Positions 7,557-52,153 of a stretch of DNA of 64,000 nucleotides are shown here, piece by piece (the stretch's first letter is position 1; every line of letters starts with the position of its first letter). Both the position numbers and the translations under genes were made by a program. This DNA is from Klebsiella phage 05F01. The DNA lies in sequence record LC483177.1; one strand, written 5' to 3'. The notes under the pieces are model-generated. The model saw only the letters and a program-made list of their open reading frames with translations, was not told the origin of the DNA and searched no databases.

Positions 7557-7620
7557 AATGGGGGAATGTTAATCCCCCAATATGATTAATATTAACATGT
7601 ATATCTTTTTTTGTCAATAC

Positions 7621-16161: not shown

Positions 16162-17880
16162 TTAAAGTGAAGTCAAATACTTTTTAACTTCTTTTTCAAC
16201 ATTTTCTCGAATATCTTTCAAGGAAACATCTTTAACCAATACACCATCACGGAAAATAACTTCCAGTTGGTTATCTTTTGTATTGATGTCTTTAAATGAT
16301 AAACCATCTTGTAAGAAATAGCTACCATCTTCTTCATCTTTCAATACTGCAAGGAAGCCTTTTGCAGAACGTTTCTTAGCATCTGTTTTAGGTTCTTTAC
16401 TTACCAGGATTTCTTCGCCATCAATGATAGCACCTGTAGCCTTACATGCAAATCCAAATGTATCACGAGTATTGTAGTTATAAGAGAAACTACCGACACC
16501 GTATACGACATTGTTTGATGCAAACCCTTTACGTTTAAGACGGACACTAATCTCTTTGAATCGTTCTACAGAGATTGAATCACCATAAATCAATCCAATA
16601 TGAGAGTCAAGTTCTTTGTATCCTTTACTATTAACTTTTCCACCAAAAGTCTCCCATAAGCAAGAGATTGCTCCAATAGCTTCATGACGTGGGATTTCAT
16701 AATAAGGGTTAAGGCTACCATTAATCGTCTGTTCTCCAGTAATATCATAATAGGCATCCCTATCTTCTAAATAGATTACTTCTGTTAAGACATCAACACT
16801 AGAACATTGCAAGGTTTCCCAATCCTTAAAACTTTCAACATAATATCCAGCAACCACTTTAACCGGATCGCCACTATCAGGACGAATTACAAGTTTACCA
16901 TCTCGTTCCATAATCTTATCTTTAAGATTAGGTAGGATTTTAGTAACGACTGACCAAAAATCATAGCTGTCAGCTACATATGATGAATTACCTTTAGAGT
17001 AGATCTCAGTTGAATAAGTATCAATGAAATCTGTTTCCGCTAGGAAACGTAGCTGGTCAATGTCATTTTCAAGGTGTGGGAAATGCTCTTTTAGTTTATT
17101 AACAATAACACCAATATTAGTCGTCGCTACAGAGTGTTCAGATGCAGGAATACTACCACCAACAAACTCACCTTCCATATTGTAATAATCATTAGCATAC
17201 TGAATTGCAAGAACGCTATCGGTACCCATGAAACTTGCCAGATGACCAATACCAGTGTGATAACTGTCACGAATCCCAGACAAACCACGTGCAGAAAAGT
17301 CATGACATTGCCAAGGCATATGCAAAGTGTTATCACACGTGATATTAGCATATTTTTCAGCCATCAAACGATACTGGAATGCTGTAGTGGCGTTAGTGAT
17401 TACTTTCCAAGTTTCAGCAGACAGTGCTGTTTCAAAATAGTTAGTTAGCCATGCAAAATCAGGGTGAGTGTTATGAATAGTATAACATGGAACCTGAATA
17501 GGGCAAATTGTTCCTTCTGGCAGAGCACGGATTTCAATAGGAAGGTACCCCAAGTCATGAAGCTTACCAATATGAGTAACATCCATATCAACACCTAGGT
17601 AGCCTTTTACAAAGTTCTTGTATTCATTAACTACTTCTGCACGGTCACGATCAAAGAACCCTTCATTCCAAAGATCGATAATGAAGTTTTTAACAACACC
17701 CTGGATACCAACAAACAATACACCACGTGGAGCATCATCTGCATAGTGCTTGAAAAGCTTATCTGCTCGTGGGGTGAAGTTACTGAAAATCAACTCTGTC
17801 TTAGGGTGATACTGCTGAATATGTCCAATTTTATACCCATCAGTTGCAAAAAGTGGGTTAATGTTTTTAGTCTTAGTCAT
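16162..17880 (-). CDS. nadV: nicotinamide phosphoribosyltransferase family protein (NadV/Nampt-like, 572 aa); alternatively a Namat-type nicotinamide ADP-ribose transferase
   Basis: N-terminal NPLFATDGYKIGH resembling Nampt NILLATDSYKVTH; family-typical length and class-II PRTase-like features. Confidence 0.8.
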   Translation of the reverse strand: MTKTKNINPLFATDGYKIGHIQQYHPKTELIFSNFTPRADKLFKHYADDAPRGVLFVGIQGVVKNFIIDLWNEGFFDRDRAEVVNEYKNFVKGYLGVDMDVTHIGKLHDLGYLPIEIRALPEGTICPIQVPCYTIHNTHPDFAWLTNYFETALSAETWKVITNATTAFQYRLMAEKYANITCDNTLHMPWQCHDFSARGLSGIRDSYHTGIGHLASFMGTDSVLAIQYANDYYNMEGEFVGGSIPASEHSVATTNIGVIVNKLKEHFPHLENDIDQLRFLAETDFIDTYSTEIYSKGNSSYVADSYDFWSVVTKILPNLKDKIMERDGKLVIRPDSGDPVKVVAGYYVESFKDWETLQCSSVDVLTEVIYLEDRDAYYDITGEQTINGSLNPYYEIPRHEAIGAISCLWETFGGKVNSKGYKELDSHIGLIYGDSISVERFKEISVRLKRKGFASNNVVYGVGSFSYNYNTRDTFGFACKATGAIIDGEEILVSKEPKTDAKKRSAKGFLAVLKDEEDGSYFLQDGLSFKDINTKDNQLEVIFRDGVLVKDVSLKDIRENVEKEVKKYLTSL

Positions 17881-18380: not shown

Positions 18381-19259
18381 TTAACATAAAATTTGTTTTT
18401 GAACTTCTTTCTGATTTTCTACCAGAACACCTGTAGTGTTGTCAACATTATTTTCCCAAACATTGAAAGAATGAATTTTATCAATGTAAGTTGAAAGAAT
18501 ATCCACTCCTTTAGAGAAGATACCATGAGTGACATACAACTCAACCTTACCAGCATTTCGTTCTTTAAGAACTTTTGCTAGTTCAATGAACGTCCTTCCT
18601 CCATCACAGATATCATCCACGATCATAAGATTCATTCCATCAAAATCCAATACAGGGATATTAGTCTTAATGATTTCACCTGTCAAGGTGTCTCTTACTT
18701 TTTCTGCACAATGAACTTCTACACCAAGACGTTTACCAAGTTTGAAGATTTTCTTAAGAGCACCACCATCAGGACTAACCAGATGGAAAAATTCTTGCTT
18801 AATCTTCCATGCCAACATATGGAATGCAACATCATCTTGTTCAATGACAGTAAGATTGTTAATCACTGCACGTGACACATCACTGTGTGGGTCAACAACA
18901 ATCACTTCATCAAATTTAAGGCTATTTAAAATGTTTGCGAAAGCTTTAACACCAAATGCCTCTCCTGGCTCACAGAATCGATCCTGGCGGGCGTAAGGGA
19001 TATACATCATCCAAAGACACACCTTTACATCTAAACCTCTTACAACCTCATCCAGAGCGTTTTTGACCATAACCAGTTCCATGAGGTCTTGGGAGTTCTT
19101 AACTTCATGATAGACAGAAACGGTTGTGCCAACTCCTACAAGCTTATCTACATCATTCATATCAAGCTTAACATGAACTTCTCCTCCAGAGAAAACAATC
19201 TTCTCACATCTAATTTCTTCTGTTAAATATGTATACTTATTAAAAACTTCAATCTTCAT
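18381..19259 (-). CDS. prs: ribose-phosphate pyrophosphokinase family protein (Prs-like, 292 aa); alternatively an ADP-ribose pyrophosphokinase (Adps-type)
   Basis: motifs SGGEVHVKL, LMELV...IPYARQDR, PRPP-binding loop VDDICDGGRT align to E. coli Prs. Confidence 0.75.
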   Translation of the reverse strand: MKIEVFNKYTYLTEEIRCEKIVFSGGEVHVKLDMNDVDKLVGVGTTVSVYHEVKNSQDLMELVMVKNALDEVVRGLDVKVCLWMMYIPYARQDRFCEPGEAFGVKAFANILNSLKFDEVIVVDPHSDVSRAVINNLTVIEQDDVAFHMLAWKIKQEFFHLVSPDGGALKKIFKLGKRLGVEVHCAEKVRDTLTGEIIKTNIPVLDFDGMNLMIVDDICDGGRTFIELAKVLKERNAGKVELYVTHGIFSKGVDILSTYIDKIHSFNVWENNVDNTTGVLVENQKEVQKQILC

Positions 19260-21883: not shown

Positions 21884-22098
21884 CATGTAGATTCTTTAAT
21901 GGAGCTATAATTTGTTTCAACCCATCTTATAGATTAAGAACTGGTGATGGTGGATATGTCTATATGGATTGGCATCACTATTGTGGTCCCACATTCTATA
22001 AAGATAAAAGGTTAACCAAAGAAGTTGAAGATTGGTGGGAAAATGAATACATATGCAAAGCATTAGATTGGTTTATTCACCGAGGGGAAAGGGCATGA
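21880..22098 (+). CDS. hypothetical protein
   Basis: track ORF. Confidence 0.4.
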   Translation: MTCRFFNGAIICFNPSYRLRTGDGGYVYMDWHHYCGPTFYKDKRLTKEVEDWWENEYICKALDWFIHRGERA

Positions 22099-22448
22099 AA
22101 GTTATTTGGTTGGATGACTTAAGAGATCCAAAAGATTATGGGTATCCTCATGCTATTTGGTTTAAAACTTCACAGGAAATACTTAACTCACATTATCTGA
22201 GTAGTCTGCAAAAAGGGTATCGTTTTGTTGATGAGTGGCATTTTGACAACGACTTAGGTGAAGAATCTTACCAAGATGGTTATGATGTATTCAAAGTACT
22301 TGAAGAACTTCTGGTGTTTGGTAAACCGTGCTTCGGGAATCCCAAAATCTACGTGCATACATCAAATCCTTCTGCTGCTAACAAATTTATGCTTGCAAAA
22401 GATAGCATGGAAAGGTATGGTGTAGAAATTAAGAGAGTCAACTATTAA
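22053..22448 (+). CDS. hypothetical protein (start possibly internal MKVIWLDD)
   Basis: track ORF. Confidence 0.4.
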   Translation: MQSIRLVYSPRGKGMKVIWLDDLRDPKDYGYPHAIWFKTSQEILNSHYLSSLQKGYRFVDEWHFDNDLGEESYQDGYDVFKVLEELLVFGKPCFGNPKIYVHTSNPSAANKFMLAKDSMERYGVEIKRVNY

Positions 22449-32341: not shown

Positions 32342-32929
32342 ATGCGAGTCGTATGTGATTGCGATTTAGTTATAGCTCCAGCAGATGTAAAATGGTATAA
32401 CTGGCTTTGTGCTATTAGTGGTGAGAGTCCAGTTATCCCAGAACACAATGCAGACTATAATCTAGCTAATTACTTTCCAGACTTTGAGAAGAAGTATGGA
32501 TATAATCCTCACTCCTTTTGGGATAGTCCTTATCTGTACCATAATATGCCTGTAATTAAAGGTGCAGATAAGATTCTAGGTAGGATTGCATTAGGTGGTG
32601 GTAATGTTTTAATTGCAAGCCACACAAAAGGTGGACACTTTAGCTCCAAGTATAAATATAATGTCCTCAATTTGAAGAATGTTGACTTCAGTCGTGGTTC
32701 AGGTAATGGATTTTTTGCAACTAAAGAAAAATACCTACTGCCTTGTGATATGGCTATTGACGATAGGGCAGAAAATTTAGTATTATTCCCAAGTGATGTA
32801 ATTAAGGTTTACTTTAAAACAAGATATTTTGACCCTTATCTTGATGAATTAAAAACACAAGAAAATGTCTTTATAACAGGTATTGATGATCCTTGGAAAG
32901 ATATTGAAAATTATTTAGAAGGAGTATAA
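32342..32929 (+). CDS. putative 5'(3')-deoxyribonucleotidase (HAD-like, NT5C family)
   Basis: N-terminal VVCDCDLVIAPAD resembling DxDxV/T HAD motif I of NT5C proteins; weak. Confidence 0.35.
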   Translation: MRVVCDCDLVIAPADVKWYNWLCAISGESPVIPEHNADYNLANYFPDFEKKYGYNPHSFWDSPYLYHNMPVIKGADKILGRIALGGGNVLIASHTKGGHFSSKYKYNVLNLKNVDFSRGSGNGFFATKEKYLLPCDMAIDDRAENLVLFPSDVIKVYFKTRYFDPYLDELKTQENVFITGIDDPWKDIENYLEGV

Positions 32930-32930
32930 A

Positions 32931-33257
32931 ATGAGACAAGATCAGATTGATGAATTAAAACCACAATATCGTGAAATCACAGAAGCAATTTTTGGAGCAA
33001 TGCTTTCTTCAGAAGGTGTGACTACCCTTGAAGATGTTCTCCCTAATCCTGATGAATTTATTGAAGGTATGATTAAGAGTGCTTACAGTGAAGGATTTAC
33101 TGAAAAAGATATTGATGCTATCATTAAATTCAATAAGAAGTATGAGAAGAAAAACAATACTGCTAAACTGCGTTCTCAAATGTTTATTGAAAAATATTTT
33201 GAAGAGAATATTGCAAGCATTGAAGCACATTTTAATAAATTTAAGGAGAATAAATGA
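32931..33257 (+). CDS. hypothetical protein
   Basis: track ORF. Confidence 0.4.
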   Translation: MRQDQIDELKPQYREITEAIFGAMLSSEGVTTLEDVLPNPDEFIEGMIKSAYSEGFTEKDIDAIIKFNKKYEKKNNTAKLRSQMFIEKYFEENIASIEAHFNKFKENK

Positions 33258-34234
33258 CAAACCAGATTTCAGCAAAGGTAATTGCCCATAGTGTAGCATT
33301 TGGTAGTGATAATGAAATTGTGACATTTGAACTGGAATATCCACGAATTATTCACAGTGAATTAATGACACATCGTCTGTTTAGTCGTAATGCAGCATCA
33401 AGTCGTGCTATTCCTGTAAAAACCTTAATTGAAATGGTTAGAAATGAGCCAGCAATGCCTTATCGGTTTGGTGCAAACCAGCCGGGGATGCAGGATAAAG
33501 GCGTAGAGCACGACAGTGAAGTTGGTGCAGGATATTCCGGTAGAGATTGGTGGAGACTCGCTGCTCTTAGTGCTGCAAACTTTGCGGAGCAACTGTCCGA
33601 CGCAGGGTATCATAAACAAATTGCAAATCGATTACTAGAGCCTTTCCAGCGTATCAAGACGGTTCTTACAGCTACGGAGTTTGCTAATTTTTGGTGGTTG
33701 CGTTTAGATAAGGATGCTGACCCTACCATTAAAAAGTTAGCAGAAGTTATGAAAGAAGCTTACGATGCTTCTGAAAAAGAAGTTCTGAAACCGGGTGAAT
33801 GGCATACTCCTTATGTCTTACATTCAGAAGGTAAAGATGGTGAAATTGGTTATTATGTTCTTGACGAAAGTGGTAAATGGCCTGTAGATTTATCTCTTGA
33901 AGAAGCATTGGGTATTTCTTCTTCATGTTGTGCTCAAGTTAGTTATCGTCGTCTTAACTCTACTAAAGATAAGGCACTTGATATCTATGGTCGTTTATTG
34001 TCTGGTGATAAAGTTCATGCCTCCCCTTTCGAGCATCAGGCAACACCGATGAAGAAAAAGTATAATAAGACCAATGAATGGGGAGACACCTTATGGACCA
34101 TTAATAACCCAACAGATGTAGATTCTTGGGAGAAAGGTATTACACACATGGATAGAAATAAGAACTTATGGTCTGGTAATTTCAAAGGATTTATTCAACA
34201 CCGTCAACTATTAAATAACCATACTGTTTGGTAA
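33254..34234 (+). CDS. thyX: flavin-dependent thymidylate synthase ThyX
   Basis: ThyX signature RHRx7S present as HRLFSRNAASSR. Confidence 0.8.
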   Translation: MTNQISAKVIAHSVAFGSDNEIVTFELEYPRIIHSELMTHRLFSRNAASSRAIPVKTLIEMVRNEPAMPYRFGANQPGMQDKGVEHDSEVGAGYSGRDWWRLAALSAANFAEQLSDAGYHKQIANRLLEPFQRIKTVLTATEFANFWWLRLDKDADPTIKKLAEVMKEAYDASEKEVLKPGEWHTPYVLHSEGKDGEIGYYVLDESGKWPVDLSLEEALGISSSCCAQVSYRRLNSTKDKALDIYGRLLSGDKVHASPFEHQATPMKKKYNKTNEWGDTLWTINNPTDVDSWEKGITHMDRNKNLWSGNFKGFIQHRQLLNNHTVW

Positions 34235-35048: not shown

Positions 35049-37307
35049 GTGATTAATTTTGTTACGAAAGAGAATGGTAAAAAGGAAGAATTCAAAGTAG
35101 AGAAACTCCGAAAATGGTCGGAGTTTTCATGGAATAACTCAAAAGGTAAGGTTAATTGGTCAGAGATTGAACTTGAAGCTATTAAACGTTGCTATGATGG
35201 TATCCCAACACGTGACCTACATAAGGCAATGATTGATGTCTGTGTTGATAAGCAAGAAGAACGGTATCTTATCCCTGCTGGTCGTCTTCTTATTGGTCAA
35301 GTGTATAAGGATGCACATGGTGGATTTAATATGATCCCTAAATTCACTGACTTCAATAAAGATATGATTAAGCGTGGCCTTTGGGAAGATATGCATTATT
35401 CTGAACAAGAACTCCTGCAATTTGAAAAAGCAATTAATCATAATAAAAACCTTGAATATGGGTATTCAGTTATCCGACAGTTAGTTGATAAATATCTTAT
35501 CAAAGATAACGTAAATAACATCGTTCATGAATCCCCTCAATTTGCCTTTATGGGGATTGCAATGAAGGTTATGCAGAAGCAACCTTTAGATCGACGCAGC
35601 GAAGATGTCATTAAGCTTTATAAATATGTTAGTGAGTTGAAGATTAATTTACCTTCACCTTACCTGACCACTCTTCGGACACCAATTACAGGTAGTGCTA
35701 GTTGTTGTGTATTCCGTGCAGATGATACAGCCAGTAGCTTGAGCGTTGCTAACCACATTGCACATGAATTCACATTAAACAATGCAGGTATCGGTGTTTA
35801 CCTACAGACCCGTGCAACAGGTCGTGGCGTTAAAAAGAACCGTATCGTTCATGGAGGTTTACTCCCTTATTGGCGTTGGATGGAGTCAAGTGTAGGTGCT
35901 TCTAAACAAAGCTCTCGTGGTGGTAATGCTACAGTGACATTTACTTGTCTTGAACCTGACTGGAAAGACCTTATTCAGACTAAAAATCCACTTACCCCAG
36001 CAGAGAAACGAGTAGATAAACTTGATTACTCTGTAGTAGTTAATAACGCATTCCTTCGTCGTGCTGCTAAAAAGCAAGACTGGATGTTAGTCAGTTATGA
36101 CGATGCACCGGAACTTTATGAAGCTCTATATAAATCAGAAGAAGTTTTTGATGAGGTTTATGAGAAAGTAAGTCGTAAACGTATTAAAAAGACAATTGTT
36201 AATGCACAGAAGATGCTTCTTGATATTGTTAAGCAACGTTATGAAACAGGACGTATCTACCTGTTCTTTGCAGATAATGCAAACACGCATACACCTTTTA
36301 AAGAGACGATTTATCAGAGTAACCTTTGTCAAGAGATCTTTCTGCCAACAAAACCTTTCCATAGTGTAGCTAATCTGTACTCTGGAGAAGATATTAATGA
36401 TGGTGAAGTTGCTTTATGTTTTCTTTCTGCTATTGTAGCAGGTCGTGTTAAGCCAGAAGAGTATGAAGATGTTGCATACTACACTGTATTAACTATCGAT
36501 AACGTAATTGACACTATGAAGTACCCATTCAAACACACAGAGATTACAGCTAAAGCACGTCGTTCTATTGGTGTTGGTATCACAAACCTGGCACACTATC
36601 TTGCATCAAATATGGTTAGCTACTCATCAGAGAAAGGTAAGCAGATGATGCACGAATTAGCTGAACTTCATTACTATAGCTTGGCGAAAGCTTCTTTGCG
36701 TCTTGGTAAAGAAAAAGGTAATGCAGAATGGATGGATAAAACAAAATGGCCCGAAGGTTGGTTACCAATTGATACCTACTCTAAGAACTTAGATTCAGTT
36801 GCTGATTTCGAGAATAAATGTGATTGGGAAACACTACGTAAAGAGATTATTGAAAATGGTGGTATCCGTAATAGCGTTCTAGTTGCTCATATGCCTTGTG
36901 AATCTAGCAGCGTTGTCAGCAATACAGTTAATGGGTTATATCCTATTCGTGATTTAGCACTGTTTAAGCAGTCTCAGAAAGGTAACGTTTCATTTATTGC
37001 CCCTGATGCTGATAAGCTTAAATTGTTCTATGATTATGCTTATGAAATGGAAAAAGAGCCTGTAGCTGATACTTATGCAATCTTTAGTAAATTCACTGAT
37101 CAAGGTATTTCTGCTGATGAGTATGAAAACTTAACTAAAGAAATGAGTAGTGAAGAACGAACTAAACGTTCAGTAAAATTCATTCTGCGATGTGCTAAGA
37201 ATGGTGTTAAGAGTATCTACTATCTAAACAGTAAAACAAAATCTTCTAATACGATTGCCCAAGATGTTGAAGAAGATGAATCAGGATGCGAGTCCTGTGC
37301 AATGTAG
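35049..37307 (+). CDS. nrdA: ribonucleoside-diphosphate reductase alpha subunit (class Ia NrdA), non-ATG start
   Basis: 752 aa; ATP-cone N-terminus; C-terminal CxxC tail (CESCAM). Confidence 0.9.
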   Translation: MINFVTKENGKKEEFKVEKLRKWSEFSWNNSKGKVNWSEIELEAIKRCYDGIPTRDLHKAMIDVCVDKQEERYLIPAGRLLIGQVYKDAHGGFNMIPKFTDFNKDMIKRGLWEDMHYSEQELLQFEKAINHNKNLEYGYSVIRQLVDKYLIKDNVNNIVHESPQFAFMGIAMKVMQKQPLDRRSEDVIKLYKYVSELKINLPSPYLTTLRTPITGSASCCVFRADDTASSLSVANHIAHEFTLNNAGIGVYLQTRATGRGVKKNRIVHGGLLPYWRWMESSVGASKQSSRGGNATVTFTCLEPDWKDLIQTKNPLTPAEKRVDKLDYSVVVNNAFLRRAAKKQDWMLVSYDDAPELYEALYKSEEVFDEVYEKVSRKRIKKTIVNAQKMLLDIVKQRYETGRIYLFFADNANTHTPFKETIYQSNLCQEIFLPTKPFHSVANLYSGEDINDGEVALCFLSAIVAGRVKPEEYEDVAYYTVLTIDNVIDTMKYPFKHTEITAKARRSIGVGITNLAHYLASNMVSYSSEKGKQMMHELAELHYYSLAKASLRLGKEKGNAEWMDKTKWPEGWLPIDTYSKNLDSVADFENKCDWETLRKEIIENGGIRNSVLVAHMPCESSSVVSNTVNGLYPIRDLALFKQSQKGNVSFIAPDADKLKLFYDYAYEMEKEPVADTYAIFSKFTDQGISADEYENLTKEMSSEERTKRSVKFILRCAKNGVKSIYYLNSKTKSSNTIAQDVEEDESGCESCAM

Positions 37308-37310
37308 AAT

Positions 37311-37335
37311 AAGGGGCGAAAGCCCCTTTTTATTT
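37311..37335 (+). terminator. intrinsic terminator GGGGCGAAAGCCCC plus UUUUU
   Basis: hairpin plus T-run after nrdA stop. Confidence 0.65.
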
Positions 37336-37352: not shown

Positions 37353-38432
37353 TTGTCAGCTATAAATTTTGATAATAAGAATTATGAAAGTGGTAAATAC
37401 CCATTATTTTTAGGTGAAGATTTAGGTTTGTATGATACAATCAATATTACATATAACAGTATTGAGAAAAATTACCTTAAGCAACGTGCTCAGATGTGGG
37501 CTGAAACTGAAGTTAGTTTAGACCAGTCTCGTAAGGACTTTGCTACCTGTTCTGAAAATAACTACAATGTAATGATCAAGAACTTGTCCTATCAATGGAG
37601 TGCAGATTCATTGGCAAAATCTATTATTGCATTATTCAGCCCTTTCATTTCCAATAATGAACTGGCGGGGGGCTTTATGTTCCAAAGTGCAATGGAAATC
37701 ATTCACTCAAGAACATACTCTGAAATTATTCGTCAGTGTATTAAAGATCCACAAGAGATTTTTACTGAGATCCGAGCTAACAGTAACATCTTTGATAGGA
37801 TGGAAACTGTTGAAAAAGCCTTCTCAGAACTAAAAAAAGCAGGGCATGAATATTCTTTAGGCATGATTGAGGTAAATGACAACCTTCGCCTTATTATTCT
37901 CAAAGGTGTATTTGCACTACTGGCACTTGAAGGTATCCAGTTTATGTCTTCATTCTCTGCAACATTTGCAATGGGTGAACAACAACTCTTTGTAGGCGCT
38001 TGTAAGCTTATTTCTAAAATAATGCTTGACGAGATACTGCATTCTCAGTTAGACTTAGACATCATTGAGAGTTTACTTAAAGAACCAGAATGGAAACGTG
38101 TTTATGATAATAACTCTGGTGAATTAAAAGCAATTCTTGATGAAGTTGTAAAATCAGAGGAACAATGGGCAGATTATTTGTTCTCTGAAGGACGTGTTGT
38201 GCTTGGTTTGAATGCTCCACTAATGAAAGAGTGGCTATGGCATAATGCATCTCCAATTTATCGTCGTCTGAAACTTCCTTACGATTTTCCTGCTACGTCA
38301 AAAAATCCACTGCCTTGGATGGATAAATGGATGAACCCAGATAAAGTTCAGACTGCTAATATGGAGATACAAAAGACTGAGTATAAACTTAATGTTTCTT
38401 CTACAGATATTGATGAGGAGTTTGATTTCTAA
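37353..38432 (+). CDS. nrdB: ribonucleoside-diphosphate reductase beta subunit (NrdB), TTG start after GGAGGA
   Basis: 359 aa; ferritin-like di-iron motifs; C-terminal acidic tail EEFDF for R1 binding. Confidence 0.85.
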   Translation: MSAINFDNKNYESGKYPLFLGEDLGLYDTINITYNSIEKNYLKQRAQMWAETEVSLDQSRKDFATCSENNYNVMIKNLSYQWSADSLAKSIIALFSPFISNNELAGGFMFQSAMEIIHSRTYSEIIRQCIKDPQEIFTEIRANSNIFDRMETVEKAFSELKKAGHEYSLGMIEVNDNLRLIILKGVFALLALEGIQFMSSFSATFAMGEQQLFVGACKLISKIMLDEILHSQLDLDIIESLLKEPEWKRVYDNNSGELKAILDEVVKSEEQWADYLFSEGRVVLGLNAPLMKEWLWHNASPIYRRLKLPYDFPATSKNPLPWMDKWMNPDKVQTANMEIQKTEYKLNVSSTDIDEEFDF

Positions 38433-38606
38433 TGCAAAATGTATACTTTTTAAATAAAAAAGATTTTTATGAGAAACTCTTGGAGTTTAACTTTAAAAGT
38501 TTTATTTATAGCAATGAAGTAAATCTGCAAAGAATTTCTAATGCAGGGAATAAAAGAACACTGCTAGTAAATGGCACTCTTTACATAGAGAATGAGGAAG
38601 AGTAAA
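38433..38606 (+). CDS. small ORF (57 aa) below track cutoff, overlapping stop/start with neighbours
   Basis: read directly from sequence. Confidence 0.25.
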
Positions 38607-38830
38607 TGGAAGCAATGATAAGTAGTCAGAAAAGTATCAGGTTAGGGGGTTTAGCTTATATGCTGCTGGAAACAGCAGCTAAAGAAAAATGCCCTTTTGC
38701 ATATAAAGAGAATATTAAATCATTCGAGTCACAACCTGATTCTTTCACTTTCTGTGGTGTGATCTATGTTAAAGAGGAAGAGAAGTCTTTATTCAATTCA
38801 GTAAAAAGTATTTGGGAGAGCTATTCTTGA
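38606..38830 (+). CDS. small hypothetical protein (74 aa)
   Basis: track ORF. Confidence 0.4.
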
Positions 38831-39810
38831 GATATCTTATTACAGGAGGATTAGGTTTCATAGGAAGTGCTGTAGTTAGAAAACTACTTGAAAGTAAGGA
38901 TAATGTAGTAGGAATTATTGATTCAGAAACCTATGCGGCAGATAGCAGAAATGTTCCACTATTCTTTGTAGATTATTTTAATGTTGACTTATCTAACAAA
39001 GATGATGTAAATTCTGTTGTTAAAGAATTTAATCCAGATTATGTAATGCACCTTGCTGCGGAGAGTCATGTAGATAATTCAATAAAGTCACCTTCATTGT
39101 TTATTGAATCTAATATCATAGGTACTTTTAATCTACTAGAGGCTGTCCGTTTCTACGCACCCAATTTAATTAAATTCCATCACATTTCTACCGATGAAGT
39201 GTATGGAGACCTTAGTGACAGAGAAGAACTGAATTCACTGTTTAAGGAGACAGATGCATATGATCCTAGCAGCCCTTACTCTGCTTCGAAAGCAGCAAGT
39301 GACCATCTGGTGAGGGCATGGCACCGAACTTACGGTTTACCTACGGTAATCACCAATTGTTCAAATAACTATGGACCATATCATCACCCGGAGAAGCTGA
39401 TTCCACGTGTAATCACAAATGCTCTTTTGGGTAAGGAAATTCCTATCTATGGTGCAGGTAGTCAAATTCGTGATTGGCTCTATGTAGAAGACCATGCAAA
39501 GGCACTGATTACTGCCGTAATGAATGCTGTTCCTGGTAGCACCTATAATATAGGTGGACATAACGAAAGGTCTAACTTACGTGTAGTAGAAATAATTCTT
39601 AATCTCCTTAAAGATAAGACAGGCAAAGACTACACTCACTTAATTAAATACGTTACAGATCGTCCTGGTCATGATTTAAGGTATGCTATTGATGCCACCA
39701 AGATTGGTGATGAATTAGGTTGGCATCCAGAAGAAACTTTTGAATCTGGTATTGATAAAACAGTAACATGGTATCTTGAAAATAGAGAATGGTGGGAGGG
39801 CAAGATTTGA
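38812..39810 (+). CDS. rmlB: dTDP-glucose 4,6-dehydratase (RmlB); true start probably TTG at 38827 ([14 protein letters not shown])
   Basis: Rossmann TGGxGFIGS; SDR extended family; YxxxK catalytic motif (YSASK). Confidence 0.85.
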
Positions 39811-40673
39811 AAGGTATTATTTTAGCTGGCGGGAGTGGTACCCGCCTATACCCAATAACAAAAGGTGTAAGTAAACAGCTACTACCAATTTATGATAAGC
39901 CAATGATTTACTACCCACTATCAGTTCTTATGTTAGCTGATATTAGAGAAATTCTAATTATTACAACTAGAGAAGATCAAGATAACTTCGTATCATTGCT
40001 AGGGGATGGCAGCAGCATAGGTATTAGTCTATCTTATGCTATTCAAGACCAACCTAAAGGTTTAGCTGAAGCTTTCATTATTGGTGAGGACTTTATTGAC
40101 GGAGATGATGTTGCACTTGTATTAGGTGACAACCTCTTTTTCGGTCAAGGTTTTAGTAGCAAGCTGAATAGAGCTAAAGACTTAGTTAGTCACTCTGGAG
40201 GTGCTGTTTTATTTGGTTATGAAGTAAAAGACCCTGAAAGATTTGGTGTAGTAGAGTTTAAAGGTAATGAGGTAATTAGCATTGAGGAAAAACCTGCCAA
40301 TCCTAAGTCTAATTGTGCAGTAACAGGACTATATTTTTATGACCACACTGTAGTGGAAAAAGCAAAAAGTATTTCTCCATCCATCCGGGGTGAACTTGAG
40401 ATCACTGACATCAATAATCTATACTTAATTGATGAAAATCTCTCAGTAGAGGTATTAGGGAGAGGTTTTGCATGGTTAGACACAGGCACCCATGAGAGTA
40501 TGTTAGATGCATCACAATTTGTTAGAACAATACAAAAGCAACAAGGTATGTATGTCGCATGTTTAGAGGAGATTGCGTATAAAAAGGGCTGGATAGGTAA
40601 GAAAACTCTTTTAGAGATATCTAAATCTATGTTAAAGAATGACTATGGACAATACATTATGGAGCTAATATGA
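39789..40673 (+). CDS. rmlA: glucose-1-phosphate thymidylyltransferase (RmlA)
   Basis: [16 protein letters not shown] signature; start overlaps rmlB stop. Confidence 0.85.
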
Positions 40674-41245
40674 TGATTCAAAATGCAGGTGCAGATGGAC
40701 TATATGTCATTACACCTGATGTTTTTAAAGACTCACGAGGATATTTTCTAGAGACAAGTAATAATATCACATATAAAGATATTCTCAATGGAGAGTCTTT
40801 TGTTCAGAGTAATGCATCCCTTTCTAAGAAAGGGGTGTTACGTGGGCTACATTATCAAACTAAAAATGTTCAAGGTAAGTTGGTTTCTGTTAGCAATGGT
40901 TCTGTTATAGATGTGGTGGTAGACTTAAGAAAAGAGTCAGATACTTATCTTAAGTACTTTACTCAGTTCCTTTCATCTGATAATAACTTACAATTTTATG
41001 TCCCACCAGGTTTTGCTCATGGATTTGTATCTCTTGAAGAAAATACAAGGTTTGAATATAAATGCACAGACTACTACGCACCAAAGAGTGAAAAAACATT
41101 GTTGTGGTCTGACTCTGATATAGGTATAGATTGGGATAGTATTCTATATGAATTCAACCTTGACTATTTCATCCTCTCAGATAAAGACCAAAGAGGACTA
41201 ACTCTTAAGGAGATTTTGATTGAAAATCCTAGTATTTGGGGCTAA
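40670..41245 (+). CDS. rmlC: dTDP-4-dehydrorhamnose 3,5-epimerase (RmlC)
   Basis: cupin RmlC blocks: [17 protein letters not shown]...GFAHGF. Confidence 0.8.
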
Positions 41246-42029
41246 TGGTCAACTTGGAAGTATCTTTTGTGAAAAATACAGAGATCTGTCTGTCCCTTTA
41301 ACATCAAAAGATGTTGACATAACTAACTACAATGATGTAAGATATGCACTATTAAACATTAAGCCTGATATTGTCATTAACTGTGCTGCATACACTGATG
41401 TAGCTAAAGCAGAAGTTGATTTAGACTTGGCTTACAATGTAAATGCTACTGGTGCTTATTCTATATCATCAATCTCTAAAGAGATTTCAGCAAAAGTTAT
41501 CCACATATCTACAGATTATGTATATAATCAAGATGGCCCTATCTATGTAGGTGATAAAACAAACCCAATAAATAATTATGGTAAGACAAAGTTAGATGGG
41601 GACAAATTAGTATCCTATGCAGATAAGAATAACTTAGTGATAAGAACCGGTTCATTATTTTCTGACAGAGGTAAAAATTTCATTCTAACTTTGATAAATG
41701 CATATAAAAATGGCAAGATGGATTTTGATATTGTTGATGATATGTTATCAAGACCTACATCTGCATTTGATCTAGCTGATGTAATCTATAAAAATAGGGA
41801 TTTATCTGGGACAGTTCATTTTTCAGGGGACACATTAATATCATGGTATGACTATGCTAAATTGATATTTAAATTTGACCCATTAGTTAAGATTAATGCC
41901 GTAAAATCTGCTGAATCAAAAGTAAAAAGACCAATGGTATCTGACCTCATTTCTACACCTATCTTTGATGTATCTGATTTTAAATATAATCTAGAAAAAA
42001 CACTAACACTACTTGGAGTATCTAAATGA
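41220..42029 (+). CDS. rmlD: dTDP-4-dehydrorhamnose reductase (RmlD), TTG start overlapping rmlC
   Basis: [15 protein letters not shown]-terminus; about 270 aa. Confidence 0.8.
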   Translation: MKILVFGANGQLGSIFCEKYRDLSVPLTSKDVDITNYNDVRYALLNIKPDIVINCAAYTDVAKAEVDLDLAYNVNATGAYSISSISKEISAKVIHISTDYVYNQDGPIYVGDKTNPINNYGKTKLDGDKLVSYADKNNLVIRTGSLFSDRGKNFILTLINAYKNGKMDFDIVDDMLSRPTSAFDLADVIYKNRDLSGTVHFSGDTLISWYDYAKLIFKFDPLVKINAVKSAESKVKRPMVSDLISTPIFDVSDFKYNLEKTLTLLGVSK

Positions 42030-42250
42030 TCACTATTTATGGAAAAGAAGATTGCCCTTATTGTGAGGCAGCACAAATGTTAATGGAAGCACGTGGACTG
42101 GATTTCGAATATAAAGATATGAAATCTGATCCAGAAGTATTTGATGAAGTGACTAAACGCCTTGGTGGCATTCCTCCACGACTCGCACCTCAAATTTTTG
42201 ATGGTGAGGTTTATGTTGGTGGATTTGATAAAGCAAAAGACTACTTTTAA
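42026..42250 (+). CDS. grx: glutaredoxin / NrdH-like redoxin
   Basis: CPYC active site; 74 aa. Confidence 0.75.
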   Translation: MITIYGKEDCPYCEAAQMLMEARGLDFEYKDMKSDPEVFDEVTKRLGGIPPRLAPQIFDGEVYVGGFDKAKDYF

Positions 42251-42404: not shown

Positions 42405-42986
42405 TTGAGTATAACAGAAGACCAGTATAAAAAGGCTGCTAGTGACCTTGGGGTTTCAGTAGCCGCAATTAAAGCAGTTGCAGAGGTTGAATCTAATGGT
42501 AGTGGATTTATTGCCTCTACAGGACAACCAAAGATACTTTTTGAACGTCATATCATGTATAAGCAGCTTGTTAAAAACGGACTGCAAGCAGTAGCTGATG
42601 AAGCACTGAAAACACACCCTACAGTGGTTAATAAAACAGCAGGTGGGTATAAAGGAGGTGTTAATGAGTGGCTTCGCCTAGATGAAGCAGTTGACTTGGA
42701 CCGCAAATCTGCGCTAGAGTCCTGTTCATGGGGAGCATTTCAAATCATGGGATTCTACTGGAAAACCTTGGGATACTCTTCTATACAAGACCTTGTTAAT
42801 GCAGCTTATAGTGGTGATGCAGGTCAACTTGATATGTTTGTAAGATTTATCAAAGCAAACCCAGGGATTGTAAAGGCTATGAAGAATCTTGATTGGGCGA
42901 GCGTAGCCAAGCAGTATAACGGTGTTAACTATGCTAAAAACAAGTATGATGTTAAATTACGTGATGCTTATAAAAAATATAGTTGA
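42405..42986 (+). CDS. putative endolysin (N-acetylmuramidase-family peptidoglycan hydrolase)
   Basis: N-terminal AIKAVAEVESNGSGF...ILFERHIMY pattern typical of the phage muramidase family. Confidence 0.45.
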   Translation: MSITEDQYKKAASDLGVSVAAIKAVAEVESNGSGFIASTGQPKILFERHIMYKQLVKNGLQAVADEALKTHPTVVNKTAGGYKGGVNEWLRLDEAVDLDRKSALESCSWGAFQIMGFYWKTLGYSSIQDLVNAAYSGDAGQLDMFVRFIKANPGIVKAMKNLDWASVAKQYNGVNYAKNKYDVKLRDAYKKYS

Positions 42987-44896: not shown

Positions 44897-44900
44897 TTAA

Positions 44901-44926
44901 AAGCCCTACGGGGCTTTATTTATATT
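44901..44926 (+). terminator. intrinsic terminator AAGCCC-UACG-GGGCUU plus U-rich tail
   Basis: hairpin plus T-rich run. Confidence 0.5.
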
Positions 44927-46444: not shown

Positions 46445-47116
46445 ATGAACAGAAATATTGCATACAAACGTGTATCAACAGACCAGCAAGATACTGAAAG
46501 ACAGTTCCACAACTCAGGTATGGTTTTTGATCTTGAATTTGAAGAGAAACTCTCTGGTAAAAATACAGACCGCCCTGAACTAAAGAAATGTCTATCAGTA
46601 CTTTGCAAAGGTGATACACTACATGTTTGGGAAGTTAGTCGTCTTTCTCGTAACCTGACTGATACTCGTGAGATTGTGTTCTCTCTCTTAGATAGAGGGG
46701 TAAGCATTAAATTTCATAAGGAGGGATTGGAGTTTGTTTCAGGTAGTGAAGATGGTATGAAGGATGCTATCAGCAAAATGATGCTTAACGTAATGGGCAG
46801 TTTTGCTGAATTTGAAAGGTCATTGATTTGTGGTAGAGTTAAAGAAGGTGTTGCAGTAGCTAAAAGTAAAGGAATATTAATGGGAGCAGCAAACCCTAAG
46901 TATAATAGAACTGATTATTCTAAAAAGAATGCAGCTAAAAAATCCTATGAATTTGCACTCACACTGAAAGAATCTTTAGTGTCTTATCGTCAAAAAGGGT
47001 TATCTTTTTTGACTATTGCTGAAAGGTTAAATGAAGCGGGAAAAACTACAAATAAAGGTAGTGAGTTTAAAGCAATGACTGTAAAAAGGTTATGTGAAAA
47101 ATTGGAGATCAAATGA
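46445..47116 (+). CDS. serine recombinase (resolvase/invertase family) with C-terminal HTH
   Basis: catalytic N-terminus IAYKRVSTDQQDTERQ; 223 aa. Confidence 0.75.
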   Translation: MNRNIAYKRVSTDQQDTERQFHNSGMVFDLEFEEKLSGKNTDRPELKKCLSVLCKGDTLHVWEVSRLSRNLTDTREIVFSLLDRGVSIKFHKEGLEFVSGSEDGMKDAISKMMLNVMGSFAEFERSLICGRVKEGVAVAKSKGILMGAANPKYNRTDYSKKNAAKKSYEFALTLKESLVSYRQKGLSFLTIAERLNEAGKTTNKGSEFKAMTVKRLCEKLEIK

Positions 47117-48445: not shown

Positions 48446-49001
48446 ATATTACACTGGAGTAGGTAGTAGAGATGTATCTGAAGAAGAATGGAATCTAATG
48501 GTAGGTATCGGTAAGTGGTTAGCTAATAAAGGGTATTGGTTACGTAGTGGCAAAGCCGAAGGGAGTGACAGTGCATTTGAATTTGGTGTGTCTCAATCTG
48601 AAAATGTAAATAATAAAGAGATCTACATCCCTTGGTCTACATTTAAAGGCAATCAATTAGATGGTGAGGTTATTGTGCTTTCTGGACCAACTACTGATAA
48701 CTTTGCTATCTCAAGTGATTGGGTTAGACGTATACATAAATACCCTGATGGATTGAAACAAGGTGCATTTAAATTACATCAAAGAAATATCCATCAAGTT
48801 TTAGGGAAAGATCTAACCACACCTAATCCATCTACATTCTTACTTGCTTGTGCAGATCTAGAAAAGGACCTTGAAACACCCACTGGTGGTACAAGAACTG
48901 CTTGGGTATTAGCTAAACAGTTTGGCGTTCCTTGCTTAAATGTACGAGGTAAAACAAAGAAAGAAATATTCGACTGGCTAAAACAATTTGTTGACATCTA
49001 A
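48435..49001 (+). CDS. putative SLOG/DprA-like Rossmann-fold nucleotide-binding protein
   Basis: GVGSRD...RSGKAEGSDSAF glycine-rich pattern; weak. Confidence 0.3.
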   Translation: MTFKYYTGVGSRDVSEEEWNLMVGIGKWLANKGYWLRSGKAEGSDSAFEFGVSQSENVNNKEIYIPWSTFKGNQLDGEVIVLSGPTTDNFAISSDWVRRIHKYPDGLKQGAFKLHQRNIHQVLGKDLTTPNPSTFLLACADLEKDLETPTGGTRTAWVLAKQFGVPCLNVRGKTKKEIFDWLKQFVDI

Positions 49002-49024
49002 CACGTATTTTGTTAGATTACTTA

Positions 49025-49048
49025 AAGGGGCAAAAGCCCCTTTTAATT
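49025..49048 (+). terminator. intrinsic terminator GGGGCAAAAGCCCC plus UUUU
   Basis: hairpin plus T-run. Confidence 0.6.
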
Positions 49049-49204
49049 TATTTGGAGTGATGATGAAATTTCTAAAGAAAACTGTATATTTTTCTTATCT
49101 ATCTAAAGATAAGCAACGGTATTTTGGTAAGAAGGTGACACATGCAGGTGGAGATGTAACTTGCTATGGGTTTTGGTTTTTTCATATCTATTGGTGGAAT
49201 TAAT

Positions 49205-49435
49205 ATGTGGACTAAAGAAGATTTCTATAATTTAGAAAAAGCTCTAAAGTATGTAAGGGACTATGAACAAGATACTGCCGAAAGGAATAAATACCTTATT
49301 CCTGATGTAAAAGAAAAGAGTGACTGTATGCATGATAATTGTCCTAATTGTCATGGTACGGGTATTAATAAATTAGGTGGAATGTGTGTTCATGGTATTA
49401 GTTGTCCTTGTAGTAAATGCAGAACATATTGTTAA
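49205..49435 (+). CDS. small Cys-rich (DnaJ-like CxxCxGxG zinc-finger) protein
   Basis: CPNCHGTG...CPCSKC; track 49166..49435. Confidence 0.4.
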   Translation: MWTKEDFYNLEKALKYVRDYEQDTAERNKYLIPDVKEKSDCMHDNCPNCHGTGINKLGGMCVHGISCPCSKCRTYC

Positions 49436-49467
49436 AAACAAAGGATAGACTGTAGATAGGGGGTTAT

Positions 49468-49812
49468 ATGGTAACAAAAACAAAGTTTGACTCTATAGCA
49501 ACACTGTACCGACTATGTCGTGCTAGTATGGTTAGTCAGTTAAAGTTACAAGGATTGAGCGACTTAAAAATTGCGCATTCCCTAACACTTACAAAAAATA
49601 CTCTGTTATCTTTTATTAAATGCACAGAGGACACAAGTACCATACCTTTTGTATTAGATGCACCACAATATATGTTTGCTAATCGTGAAGTAACACCCAC
49701 TACATATATTGATATTCAAGTGATGGGTCTTGATACTTATCCCCTCTCTAATGGTACCGCTCTGTTGGTAGACCCTGTGACAAGAGAATTCTGTTATGTT
49801 TTTTTGGGATGA
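49468..49812 (+). CDS. hypothetical protein (114 aa)
   Basis: track ORF. Confidence 0.4.
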   Translation: MVTKTKFDSIATLYRLCRASMVSQLKLQGLSDLKIAHSLTLTKNTLLSFIKCTEDTSTIPFVLDAPQYMFANREVTPTTYIDIQVMGLDTYPLSNGTALLVDPVTREFCYVFLG

Positions 49813-49982: not shown

Positions 49983-50774
49983 ATGCGTAGGGTTATTTTA
50001 ATTAGTGGGGCAGGATTAAGTGTAGAAAGTGGTATACGTGCATTCAGAACAGATACTGAAAGTGGCAAAGCATTGTGGGTTTCAAATGATTTTAATTCTG
50101 ATACTGGTGAAAGCAAAGAAGTTCAATATAAGGTAGAAGAGGTTTGTGATATTCATGCTTTCAGGGGTAATTTTTACCACAAAACTCACTCTTTCTATAA
50201 CAAAAGACGGGAAGAATTGTCAACAGTTCACCCTAATGCAGCACATCTACAGATTGGTGAATGGTTTAATAAATACCCAGGACAAGTAATTAATATTTCA
50301 ACTAACGTAGATGATCTTCTGGAAAGAAGCGGAATCCCACGTGATGAAGTAATTCATGTTCACGGCTTCCTGAAAGAGTTGAGGTATAAACTAAATGAAG
50401 GGGATGAGGAATCCATTGTTGATATTGGATATACACAAATTGAACCTGATGACTATCATTGGGCTAAACCTAATGTAGTATTCTTTGGTGAAGCTGCACC
50501 TTTATATGCTGATATGTATAATGTGTTTGATAGTCTAACTAGTCAAGATATGGTGATAGTTGTAGGTTGTTCTAACCAAGTGATTAATTTCAATTGGGAA
50601 CTCTTTCCTTCACTATCAAAAGGTGTAAAAATGTTAGTTGTCAATAATGGGATTAACTACCTTGAACAAGAGTTATATGAAAACAACGGAGTTCTTGTTT
50701 ATTATGCAGGTGCGGTTGAGACATTTACTAACAAAAATTTCATTAAACTGATCGAAAAACATTTGGAGGGTTAG
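49983..50774 (+). CDS. Sir2-family (sirtuin-like) NAD-binding protein lacking the zinc-ribbon cysteines
   Basis: ISGAGLSVESGIRAFR matches sirtuin GAGISxxSGIPxFR; later NxDxL and HG blocks; no CxxC pairs. Confidence 0.55.
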   Translation: MRRVILISGAGLSVESGIRAFRTDTESGKALWVSNDFNSDTGESKEVQYKVEEVCDIHAFRGNFYHKTHSFYNKRREELSTVHPNAAHLQIGEWFNKYPGQVINISTNVDDLLERSGIPRDEVIHVHGFLKELRYKLNEGDEESIVDIGYTQIEPDDYHWAKPNVVFFGEAAPLYADMYNVFDSLTSQDMVIVVGCSNQVINFNWELFPSLSKGVKMLVVNNGINYLEQELYENNGVLVYYAGAVETFTNKNFIKLIEKHLEG

Positions 50775-51895: not shown

Positions 51896-52153
51896 TTATT
51901 TTGAAACGTAGTAAAGTAGTAAAGCTAAAATTATAATGAGAATGATGTTTTTAAAAACACTTCCTCCACTAGCTCGCTTAGTCTCATAACTCAACCCGGT
52001 TCCTGGCAAACCTACAGTAGTCTTCGTTCCGTTTCTATTAACATTTGCAGTAAGTCCGTTTCCACCAACAGAAACTGAGTTTACACCTTTCTTACCAAAG
52101 TTAATGTATACACCAGGAATTACTTTTATGCGTTTCCTAAATCTCAGTCCCAT
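51896..52153 (-). CDS. Gly-rich small protein with C-terminal TM anchor (85 aa)
   Basis: track ORF. Confidence 0.4.
   Translation of the reverse strand: MGLRFRKRIKVIPGVYINFGKKGVNSVSVGGNGLTANVNRNGTKTTVGLPGTGLSYETKRASGGSVFKNIILIIILALLLYYVSK

Follow-up and report, generated by a model that had tools for sequence, protein, structure and literature searches.

Here, we describe a complete deoxythymidine diphosphate (dTDP)-L-rhamnose biosynthesis operon, rmlB-rmlA-rmlC-rmlD, in Klebsiella phage 05F01, whose accession is given as LC483177 (PMC13055002); the window analysed is a stretch of 64,000 nucleotides (64 kb) of record LC483177.1, out of a genome of 147,331 bp. Among the open reading frames (ORFs) of this window, all four rml genes are present and intact on the + strand, at 38827-42029. 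The operon is a known, annotated hallmark of the phages related to phi92, nothing unusual for the group in terms of sequence and already published; the question it raises is why more than 100 sequenced therapeutic-candidate coliphages and Klebsiella phages keep rhamnose synthesis under purifying selection. We favour, with a probability of roughly 0.6, the reading that this is a functional, vertically inherited operon that would supply a sugar donor to phage glycosyltransferases working on an acceptor other than DNA, virion proteins being the leading candidate. The comparative pattern set out below, namely a core of rmlC and rmlD, a glycosyltransferase family distributed in the same way, the kinship of that family with mycobacteriophage proteins and the restriction sensitivity of relatives, makes the question experimentally tractable.

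Gene order, start codons and predicted enzymes

The four genes of the operon are as follows:

38827-39810 (+): rmlB, dTDP-glucose 4,6-dehydratase, 327 amino acids, short phage-type form, TTG start
39807-40673 (+): rmlA, glucose-1-phosphate thymidylyltransferase, 288 amino acids, TTG start
40670-41245 (+): rmlC, dTDP-4-dehydrorhamnose 3,5-epimerase, 191 amino acids, ATG start
41220-42029 (+): rmlD, dTDP-4-dehydrorhamnose reductase, 269 amino acids, TTG start

An earlier sequence-only reading of this DNA had described a complete, translationally coupled rmlB-rmlA-rmlC-rmlD operon, and this description stands, with all four ORFs intact and in the order it gave, although some of the gene starts needed revision. 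That reading began rmlB at 38812; the start is most probably the TTG at 38827, which forms a TTGA overlap with the stop codon of an upstream 74-amino acid ORF, has the sequence GGGAGAG 8 nt upstream and gives a 327-amino acid product that is the NCBI protein of phage 05F01. The start listed for rmlA, ATG 39789, likewise gives way to TTG 39807, which sits in a TTGA overlap with GGGAGGG upstream and yields the 288-amino acid RmlA that an independent gene call in relatives also gives. Further along, rmlC starts at ATG 40670 within an ATGA overlap, rmlD starts at TTG 41220 with an overlap of 26 nt with rmlC and AAGGAG upstream, and the following glutaredoxin gene starts at ATG 42026 in another ATGA overlap, coupling it to rmlD. 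TTG is the start codon of three of the four rml genes (rmlB, rmlA and rmlD), where two had been counted.

Homology and conserved catalytic residues show four enzymes that are predicted to catalyse the canonical dTDP-L-rhamnose pathway. Against their NCBIfam models, RmlB scores 440.4 bits (TIGR01181, equivalog cut-off 365.1), RmlA 463.1 bits (TIGR01207, 360.65) and RmlC 203.3 bits (TIGR01221, 155.75), and RmlD matches the Pfam family RmlD_sub_bind with 197.6 bits. RmlB aligns with Salmonella RmlB (1g1a) over residues 1-323 (E 5.7e-119), with GxxGxxG, STDE (Thr-Asp-Glu) and PYSASK (YxxxK) conserved in the alignment; its best matches in the PDB also include 1bxk, an E. coli dTDP-glucose 4,6-dehydratase that we take to be RffG. 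In RmlA, the nucleotide-binding loop GGSGTRL as well as EEKP and WLDTGT align with 4ho0 (E 2e-123) and 1mc3, presumably the RmlA of Aneurinibacillus and RffH of E. coli, respectively. RmlC keeps LRGLHYQ, QGKLV, YKCTDYY and SDKD relative to solved RmlC structures (E 3e-46), and, as in Salmonella RmlC, the cupin-site residues His, Lys, Tyr and Asp within these motifs are taken to be catalytic. The eight best PDB matches of RmlD are all RmlD-type reductases (1vl0, E 3e-42; also 3sc6 and 1kbz), of which 1vl0 and 3sc6 are presumably the Clostridium and Bacillus proteins, and its GxxGxxG, STDY and YGKTK motifs, with the Thr/Tyr/Lys triad, align with these three. The motifs quoted in the sequence-only reading, including the CPYC of the glutaredoxin, are all found in the window; it had also named frameshifts and lost catalytic residues as signs that would speak against the operon, and inspection found every frame open and the residues aligned.

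In the pathway so predicted, RmlA would join glucose-1-phosphate and deoxythymidine triphosphate (dTTP) to give dTDP-glucose, RmlB would convert this to dTDP-4-keto-6-deoxy-D-glucose and RmlC would convert the latter to dTDP-4-keto-L-rhamnose, which RmlD would reduce to dTDP-L-rhamnose. The rml genes would be expressed together with the phage genes that build dTTP, the source of one of the two substrates, and dTDP-L-rhamnose would then be the donor for phage glycosyltransferases encoded outside the window.

Distribution and inheritance of the operon

The window is of myovirus type, with recognizable major head, portal and terminase genes and 13 tRNA genes; its TerL is ~70% identical to those of phi92-like phages and Phapecoctavirus (Stephanstirmvirinae), and its core structural DNA is ~68% identical to the same groups. 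The operon sits where the phi92-type rml module sits, between nrdB and glutaredoxin/endolysin/phoH, in a collinear block that 05F01 shares with its relatives: thymidylate synthase, nrdA, nrdB, small ORFs, rmlB, rmlA, rmlC, rmlD and glutaredoxin, continuing with a small ORF, endolysin, PhoH, a proteasome-like protein, an adenine methyltransferase, a recombinase, a phosphatase, a DprA-like protein and a sirtuin. The order from thymidylate synthase to sirtuin is common to PaulScherrer, phiWec187 and FKP3, and the locus recurs in over 130 records of related phages as well as on independent metagenomic contigs. While the module of phi92-like phages and Phapecoctavirus (bas60_0210-0213 in PaulScherrer, gp064-067 in phi92, and that of phiWec187) agrees in its four genes, their order and their place, the 05F01 proteins are far diverged from it, being 59% (RmlB), 71% (RmlA), 51% (RmlC) and 40% (RmlD) identical to those of phiWec187 at the amino acid level, and the host is Klebsiella. 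The neighbouring proteins give identities to phiWec187 of 68% for NrdA, 59% for NrdB, 39% for glutaredoxin (Grx) and 65% for PhoH.

The pathway has been noted in these phages before. Olsen 2020 called the complete dTDP-rhamnose pathway of phi92-like phages 'peculiar' and guessed at the rhamnosylation of hydroxymethylated nucleotides (PMC7552041), and the pathway in this group was also described by Maffei 2021 (PMC8594841). Many GenBank records annotate all four rml genes, and the RmlB and RmlD of the window are 100% identical to GenBank proteins of 05F01, so that at least these two already carry rhamnose-pathway names, RmlD being a 'putative dTDP-4-dehydrorhamnose reductase'; its phi92-type ortholog in the phiWec187 record is named just 'NAD(P)-dependent oxidoreductase'. 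The rarity that the sequence-only reading implied is not borne out, the same operon being present in the same place throughout the phi92-like/Phapecoctavirus clade.

The four genes are not equally widespread. Counted as Escherichia-named and Klebsiella-named records in the phage collection, RmlC is present in 106 and 7 and RmlD in 107 and 7, respectively; RmlA has 88 and RmlB 91 Escherichia-named records, with Klebsiella not among the ten names listed for either. In Klebsiella phage FKP3, this locus holds rmlC-rmlD without rmlB and rmlA: thyX, nrdA and nrdB precede the pair, and a thioredoxin-fold protein, endolysin and PhoH follow it, flanks that equal those of 05F01. Its RmlC and RmlD are 51% and 41% identical to the proteins of 05F01, which in contrast keeps the full pathway. 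ESCO37 is likewise reported to be without rmlA and rmlB (PMC10269720). Given their RmlC and/or RmlD matches, KP13-26, KP2025 and ZCKP1 probably carry the two-gene variant too, FKP3 being the one whose locus was read. The distribution suggests that rmlC-rmlD form the core of the clade, kept almost everywhere, and that rmlB-rmlA are dispensable, and because relatives keep rmlC-rmlD yet drop rmlA-rmlB, we infer that it is the end product that selection keeps. Enterobacterales themselves make dTDP-4-keto-6-deoxyglucose by way of RffH and RffG, for enterobacterial common antigen (ECA), and the host could thereby provide this intermediate; as 05F01 keeps all four genes, it would depend on its host for no step.

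In composition, the operon matches the phage around it. Its GC content is 0.350, against 0.359 ± 0.030 in the other long genes of the window, its GC content at third codon positions is 0.248, against 0.259 ± 0.041, and its codon-usage distance is 0.070, against 0.065 ± 0.014 in same-sized blocks, 27.5% of which are as far or farther. These values put numbers on what had earlier been judged by eye, that codon usage and AT-richness match the rest of the phage. A search for repeats flanking the operon returned just short two-copy matches typical of chance, and the check for host-like composition and mobile-element scars, which the sequence-only reading had named as marks of an artefact, found phage-like composition and no flanking repeats.

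Selection can be followed in a closer relative, the metagenomic contig L015, which has the same gene order and an RmlB that is 88% identical. Relative to L015, the ratio of nonsynonymous to synonymous change (dN/dS) is 0.094 for rmlB, 0.053 for rmlA, 0.079 for rmlC and 0.099 for rmlD, the fastest-evolving of the four, whereas nrdA (0.007) and the endolysin gene (0.009) are more strongly constrained. The rml genes are under clear purifying selection, weaker than that on nrdA or endolysin.

A search for the nearest relatives, as the sequence-only reading had proposed, was run for RmlB and places phage-type short forms ahead of cellular homologs: the closest proteins form a clade of 325-330 amino acids at 63-88% identity, several of them on contigs of 58-148 kb, whereas the cellular gammaproteobacterial proteins, including those of Klebsiella, are ~57-61% identical and 340-367 amino acids long. 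Besides 05F01's own protein, the RmlD homologs listed reach at most ~43% identity, and the few named ones are bacterial or archaeal. The exact RmlC sequence occurs on just two short Logan contigs, the exact-sequence contig look-up with RmlD returned none, an IMG/VR scan with RmlD gave distant relatives alone (≤35% identity), and searching the phage collection (without LC483177) for DNA nearly identical to the operon gave no match. Bacterial rml/rfb clusters (O-antigen, capsule) and rffG/rffH (ECA) encode the same enzyme families with the same catalytic residues, but the 05F01 operon has no adjacent glycosyltransferase, flippase or polymerase genes, its RmlB is trimmed to 327 amino acids against the 340-367 of cellular forms, its codon usage is AT-rich and phage-like, and its B-A-C-D order is unlike the B-D-A-C or B-A-D-C that we take to be the enterobacterial ones.

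The collinear block, the graded identities and the position of the short-form RmlB clade ahead of cellular homologs suggest that the operon is old in the phage lineage and vertically inherited. In favour of genes taken up recently from the host, or of an artefact of assembly, in either case without an adapted function, one could cite that the nearest cellular RmlB homologs are gammaproteobacterial, Klebsiella included, at ~57-61%. This reading was rejected, and its probability is practically negligible, given the phage-like composition and codon usage, the missing repeats, a locus spread over more than 130 related phage records, dN/dS as low as 0.05-0.10, no cellular RmlB above ~61% and listed RmlD homologs that peak at ~43%. 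The evidence supports an intact, phage-adapted operon over host contamination.

Glycosyltransferases and the possible acceptor of the sugar

In relatives, the candidate users of the donor would be a GT-A-type glycosyltransferase and two GT-B paralogs encoded beside replication genes. PaulScherrer has four glycosyltransferase-like genes (bas60_0048-0051) beside its primase/helicase gene, encoding two GT-B paralogs, the GT-A-like bas60_0050 and one protein without a Pfam match. The GT-A family is small (17 clusters in a large-database search) and by name its records are distributed as those of RmlD are (Escherichia 107, Klebsiella 8, Campylobacter 5, Justusliebigvirus 3 and Phapecoctavirus 3), including the deep-branching Tr1 and FKP3. 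Outside the clade, its phage homologs are only ~60 mycobacteriophage records. With the family profile, hmmsearch finds Pacc40 gp98 through its central domain (E 2e-24), and the cassette of gp98 includes gp100, 85% identical to Che8 gp110. One paper, citing Freeman 2023, names Che8 gp110 among the glycosyltransferases essential for capsid glycosylation (PMC12363180), and another places glycans on the capsids of cluster F1 phages (PMC11256854). The GT-A family may by this route be linked, indirectly, to mycobacteriophage capsid glycosylation. The mycobacteriophage cassettes (Che8 gp108-110, Corndog gp38) are a case of phage glycosyltransferases acting on their own particle, but in the three that we inspected, Che8 and Pacc40 among them, no sugar-nucleotide synthesis genes are annotated, unlike in 05F01. 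By structure, GT-A is closest to glycosyltransferases of polysaccharide and teichoic acid synthesis; searching PDB sequences with the family profile returned chance matches alone.

The position of the GT-A gene varies. In FKP3 (L014, 4516-5148) and Citrobacter phage Tr1 (3924-4535) it lies ~17.5 kb downstream of rmlD, in FKP3 within an early-gene block convergent with Sir2, unlike in PaulScherrer, where it is beside primase/helicase; these differing positions indicate that the gene has moved within the clade. At the window's counterpart of the FKP3/Tr1 place (~53-54 kb, - strand), there is no homolog.

Extended to the whole group, the favoured reading would have large virulent myoviruses of Enterobacterales, namely phi92-like phages and relatives such as 05F01, coating their virion proteins with rhamnose-containing glycans by means of rmlC-rmlD, with or without rmlB-rmlA, plus the GT-A/GT-B set, an idea that we hold only tentatively and that is more likely wrong than right. 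If true, this coat would be a Gram-negative-phage counterpart of the mycobacteriophage glycan shield and, to our knowledge, the first in which the phage also makes the activated sugar itself. A virion acceptor would affect the recognition of therapeutic phages by antibodies, and, were a host glycan the acceptor, virulent phages would be managing receptors in a way not seen before.

Several observations weigh against the reading of the operon as a donor supply for virion glycosylation. The 64-kb window of the 147-kb genome has no glycosyltransferase domain in its ORFs of at least 85 amino acids, and tblastn against it with bas60_0048-0051, the FKP3 glycosyltransferase, Che8 gp108-110 and 17 GT-A family members found nothing significant, in agreement with the sequence-only reading, which had seen no such gene there. 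A literature search gave no report of glycans on virions of the phi92-like clade, and the data on restriction sensitivity come from E. coli phi92-like phages and not from 05F01 (PMC8594841). The co-distribution of rmlD and GT-A may reflect shared clade ancestry and not functional coupling, and profile comparison of the GT-A family with Che8 gp108, gp109 and gp110 was not significant. In addition, 13 of 19 GT-A members match the Pfam family TAGT below threshold (best E 6.7e-5), which keeps sparse DNA glycosylation alive, although the match is limited to residues 16-75, the nucleotide-binding/DxD region, and for six members generic GT2 is about as good a match. Lastly, RmlD scores 192.2 bits against TIGR01214, under the equivalog cut-off of 224.05, and it diverges fast (40% to phi92-type RmlD), so that the stereochemistry of the product, L-rhamnose as opposed to, for example, 6-deoxy-L-talose or another 6-deoxyhexose, is assumed; no model for talose-forming reductases is among the NCBIfam matches of RmlD.

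The choice of acceptor is the most speculative step. It would not be bulk phage DNA, and we rank virion proteins before host envelope glycans and these before sparse sites on DNA. The case for DNA, in which dTDP-L-rhamnose would be transferred onto a modified base (for example, a hydroxymethyl-pyrimidine) for T4-like protection from nucleases, was proposed by Olsen 2020 (PMC7552041) and was also among the roles suggested in the sequence-only reading. It fits with the location of the operon within a module for DNA and nucleotide metabolism, with the PaulScherrer glycosyltransferase genes that adjoin primase/helicase and DNA polymerase, and with the weak TAGT matches of GT-A, which recall T4-type and TAGT systems, where sugar transfer is likewise found among DNA-metabolism genes; T4, however, draws on the UDP-glucose of its host instead of making a donor itself. 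Two things make bulk DNA glycosylation unlikely: relatives are restriction-sensitive, and the window shows no hydroxymethylase or TET-type gene. Maffei 2021 found phi92-like phages 'exceptionally susceptible' to restriction-modification systems 'despite a putative dTDP glycosylation machinery' (PMC8594841), a susceptibility incompatible with bulk base glycosylation. ThyA-type hydroxymethylases, TET/JBP dioxygenases and further enzymes of hypermodification are all missing from the window ORFs of at least 85 amino acids, the only pyrimidine-C5 enzyme being the ThyX-type synthase, and no such acceptor-making enzyme is annotated in PaulScherrer. With the TAGT resemblance confined to part of the protein, as described above, we regard DNA hypermodification as decidedly improbable; sparse, motif-specific DNA rhamnosylation, as an alternative to a virion coat, is the less likely of those two.

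A second route leads to the surface of the host. Here, the phage would raise dTDP-rhamnose, divert dTDP-4-keto-6-deoxyglucose away from the dTDP-Fuc4NAc of ECA, or have lipopolysaccharide, ECA or capsule rhamnosylated, masking or removing receptors so as to exclude superinfection or spare progeny from adsorbing to debris. The rmlC-rmlD pair of FKP3 is just what pulling the ECA precursor elsewhere needs, and the structural kin of GT-A build polysaccharides and teichoic acids; diversion alone, however, leaves the retention of rmlA-rmlB in most members unexplained, and no Gtr-type membrane glycosyltransferase (GtrA/GtrB/GtrC), flippase or acetyltransferase domain is found in the window ORFs. Seroconversion by phages is known from temperate ones, whereas 05F01 is a large virulent-type myovirus with, presumably, a short infection cycle, and overall we think this route unlikely. 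Rather less can be said for a purely metabolic role, in which the operon would soak up or buffer dTTP or glucose-1-phosphate, or drain dTDP-glucose, with no acceptor at all, as the sequence-only reading had entertained. Its physical, and probably transcriptional, linkage to ribonucleotide reductase (RNR), ThyX and glutaredoxin and the missing glycosyltransferase in the window would suit such a role, but RmlA alone would suffice for it, and a phage that raises dTTP by ThyX and RNR gains nothing obvious by wasting it. The pattern in relatives, which have lost the dTTP-consuming rmlA together with rmlB and kept the last two, rhamnose-specific steps, led us to reject a sink for dTTP or dTDP-glucose, and we consider the metabolic role very improbable.

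Neighbouring genes and other features of the window

The sequence-only reading placed nrdAB and thyX upstream of the operon and a CPYC glutaredoxin downstream, and this agrees with the following features, in which nrdA and nrdB are directly upstream:

33254-34234 (+): divergent ThyX-type thymidylate synthase, signature THRLFSRNAASSR, PHROG 85 (E 4.8e-104)
35049-37307 (+): nrdA, class I RNR large subunit, 752 amino acids, 68% identical to phiWec187 NrdA
37311-37328 (+): GC-rich hairpin resembling a terminator, with a T run behind it, in the gap from nrdA to nrdB
37353-38432 (+): nrdB, RNR small subunit, 359 amino acids, 59% identical to phiWec187 NrdB
38606-38830 (+): 74-amino acid ORF whose stop overlaps the rmlB start (TTGA), conserved in L015 (dN/dS 0.13)
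42026-42250 (+): glutaredoxin, 74 amino acids, CPYC, Pfam Glutaredoxin 46.6 bits
42261-42404 (+): 47-amino acid basic ORF, AAGGAG then ATG, conserved in relatives
42405-42986 (+): endolysin (N-acetylmuramidase), Pfam Muramidase 218 bits
43054-43806 (+): PhoH-like ATPase, Pfam PhoH 139 bits, 65% identical to the phiWec187 ortholog
44900-44917 (+): next + strand terminator-like hairpin

Between the hairpins at 37311-37328 and 44900-44917, there is no other + strand terminator-like hairpin; the region as a whole has more terminator-like sites than shuffled sequence (14 against 6.9 ± 2.6). This terminator-free stretch and the stop/start overlaps within it suggest a single transcription unit comprising nrdB, the small ORFs, rmlBACD, grx, endolysin and phoH, of which the hairpin at 44900-44917 is the probable end. 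A scan for sigma-70 promoters gave 53 sites, against 62 ± 8.5 expected, which is not above chance, so we draw no inference on promoters, and an Rfam scan around the operon gave no match.

As the upstream member of this nucleotide-metabolism block, ThyX is predicted to supply dTMP and hence dTTP. It matches Pfam Thy1 with 32.8 bits (cut-off 24.8). The homolog is unusually long (326 amino acids), its Thy1 match is weak and THR...S....S.R replaces the canonical RHR signature; the counterpart in relatives is annotated as a thymidylate synthase, and the chemistry in 05F01 is putative. Just 5' of ThyX, at 32342-32929 (+), is an NT5C-like deoxyribonucleotide 5'-nucleotidase (Pfam E 7e-6), which sits oddly with a module that builds dTTP. 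The nrdA and nrdB orthologs of L015 match Pfam Ribonuc_red_lgN/lgC and Ribonuc_red_sm, respectively. The 74-amino acid ORF ahead of rmlB has no Pfam or NCBIfam match. The glutaredoxin is 39% identical to the ORF at the same position in phiWec187, and its PaulScherrer counterpart is annotated as putative glutaredoxin 1; the 47-amino acid ORF corresponds to a gene of the same length and place in L015 and to a 144-nt gene in PaulScherrer. Small ORFs near the operon turn over: a 57-amino acid ORF after nrdB (38432-38605, +) is absent from L015, which instead has an extra 64-amino acid ORF (7488-7682) between grx and the conserved 47-amino acid ORF.

Further along the collinear block, PaulScherrer has a Dcm-like C5-cytosine methyltransferase (109141-110130) between its sirtuin and DprA-like genes, which the 05F01 window lacks; three small ORFs occupy the matching place at 48988-49812 (+). 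A serine recombinase at 46445-47116 (+; Pfam Resolvase E 3e-28) is encoded in this virulent-type myovirus, its PaulScherrer counterpart being a 'putative site-specific recombinase'. The window also has an NAD-related trio, consisting of a nicotinamide phosphoribosyltransferase (PHROG 448; 16162-17880, -), a phosphoribosyl pyrophosphate synthetase-like protein (18381-19259, -) and a Sir2-family protein (49983-50774, +), all three of which are annotated in PaulScherrer and which may serve NAD+ salvage or counter-defence.

The 13 tRNA genes lie at 12487-16073 (-) and are those for Phe, Leu (two), Pro, Cys, Gly, Thr, Gln, Asn, Tyr, Ser, Arg and Met; the 5' end listed for a 236-amino acid P-loop ORF (13535-14245, -) runs into tRNA-Gln, and the true start of this ORF is probably further in. 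Early genes include one for a cREC_REC (cyclic-phosphate processing receiver) protein at 22053-22448 (+; E 3e-13) and one for a DUF4236 protein at 51896-52153 (-; E 3e-18). Among the records of related phages, five named 'Campylobacter phage' (MG065639, MG065645, MG065656, MG065689 and MG065650) are phi92-like or Phapecoctavirus-like genomes whose TerL, RmlB, RmlD and GT-A match as those of coliphages do, and their host labels are probably wrong.

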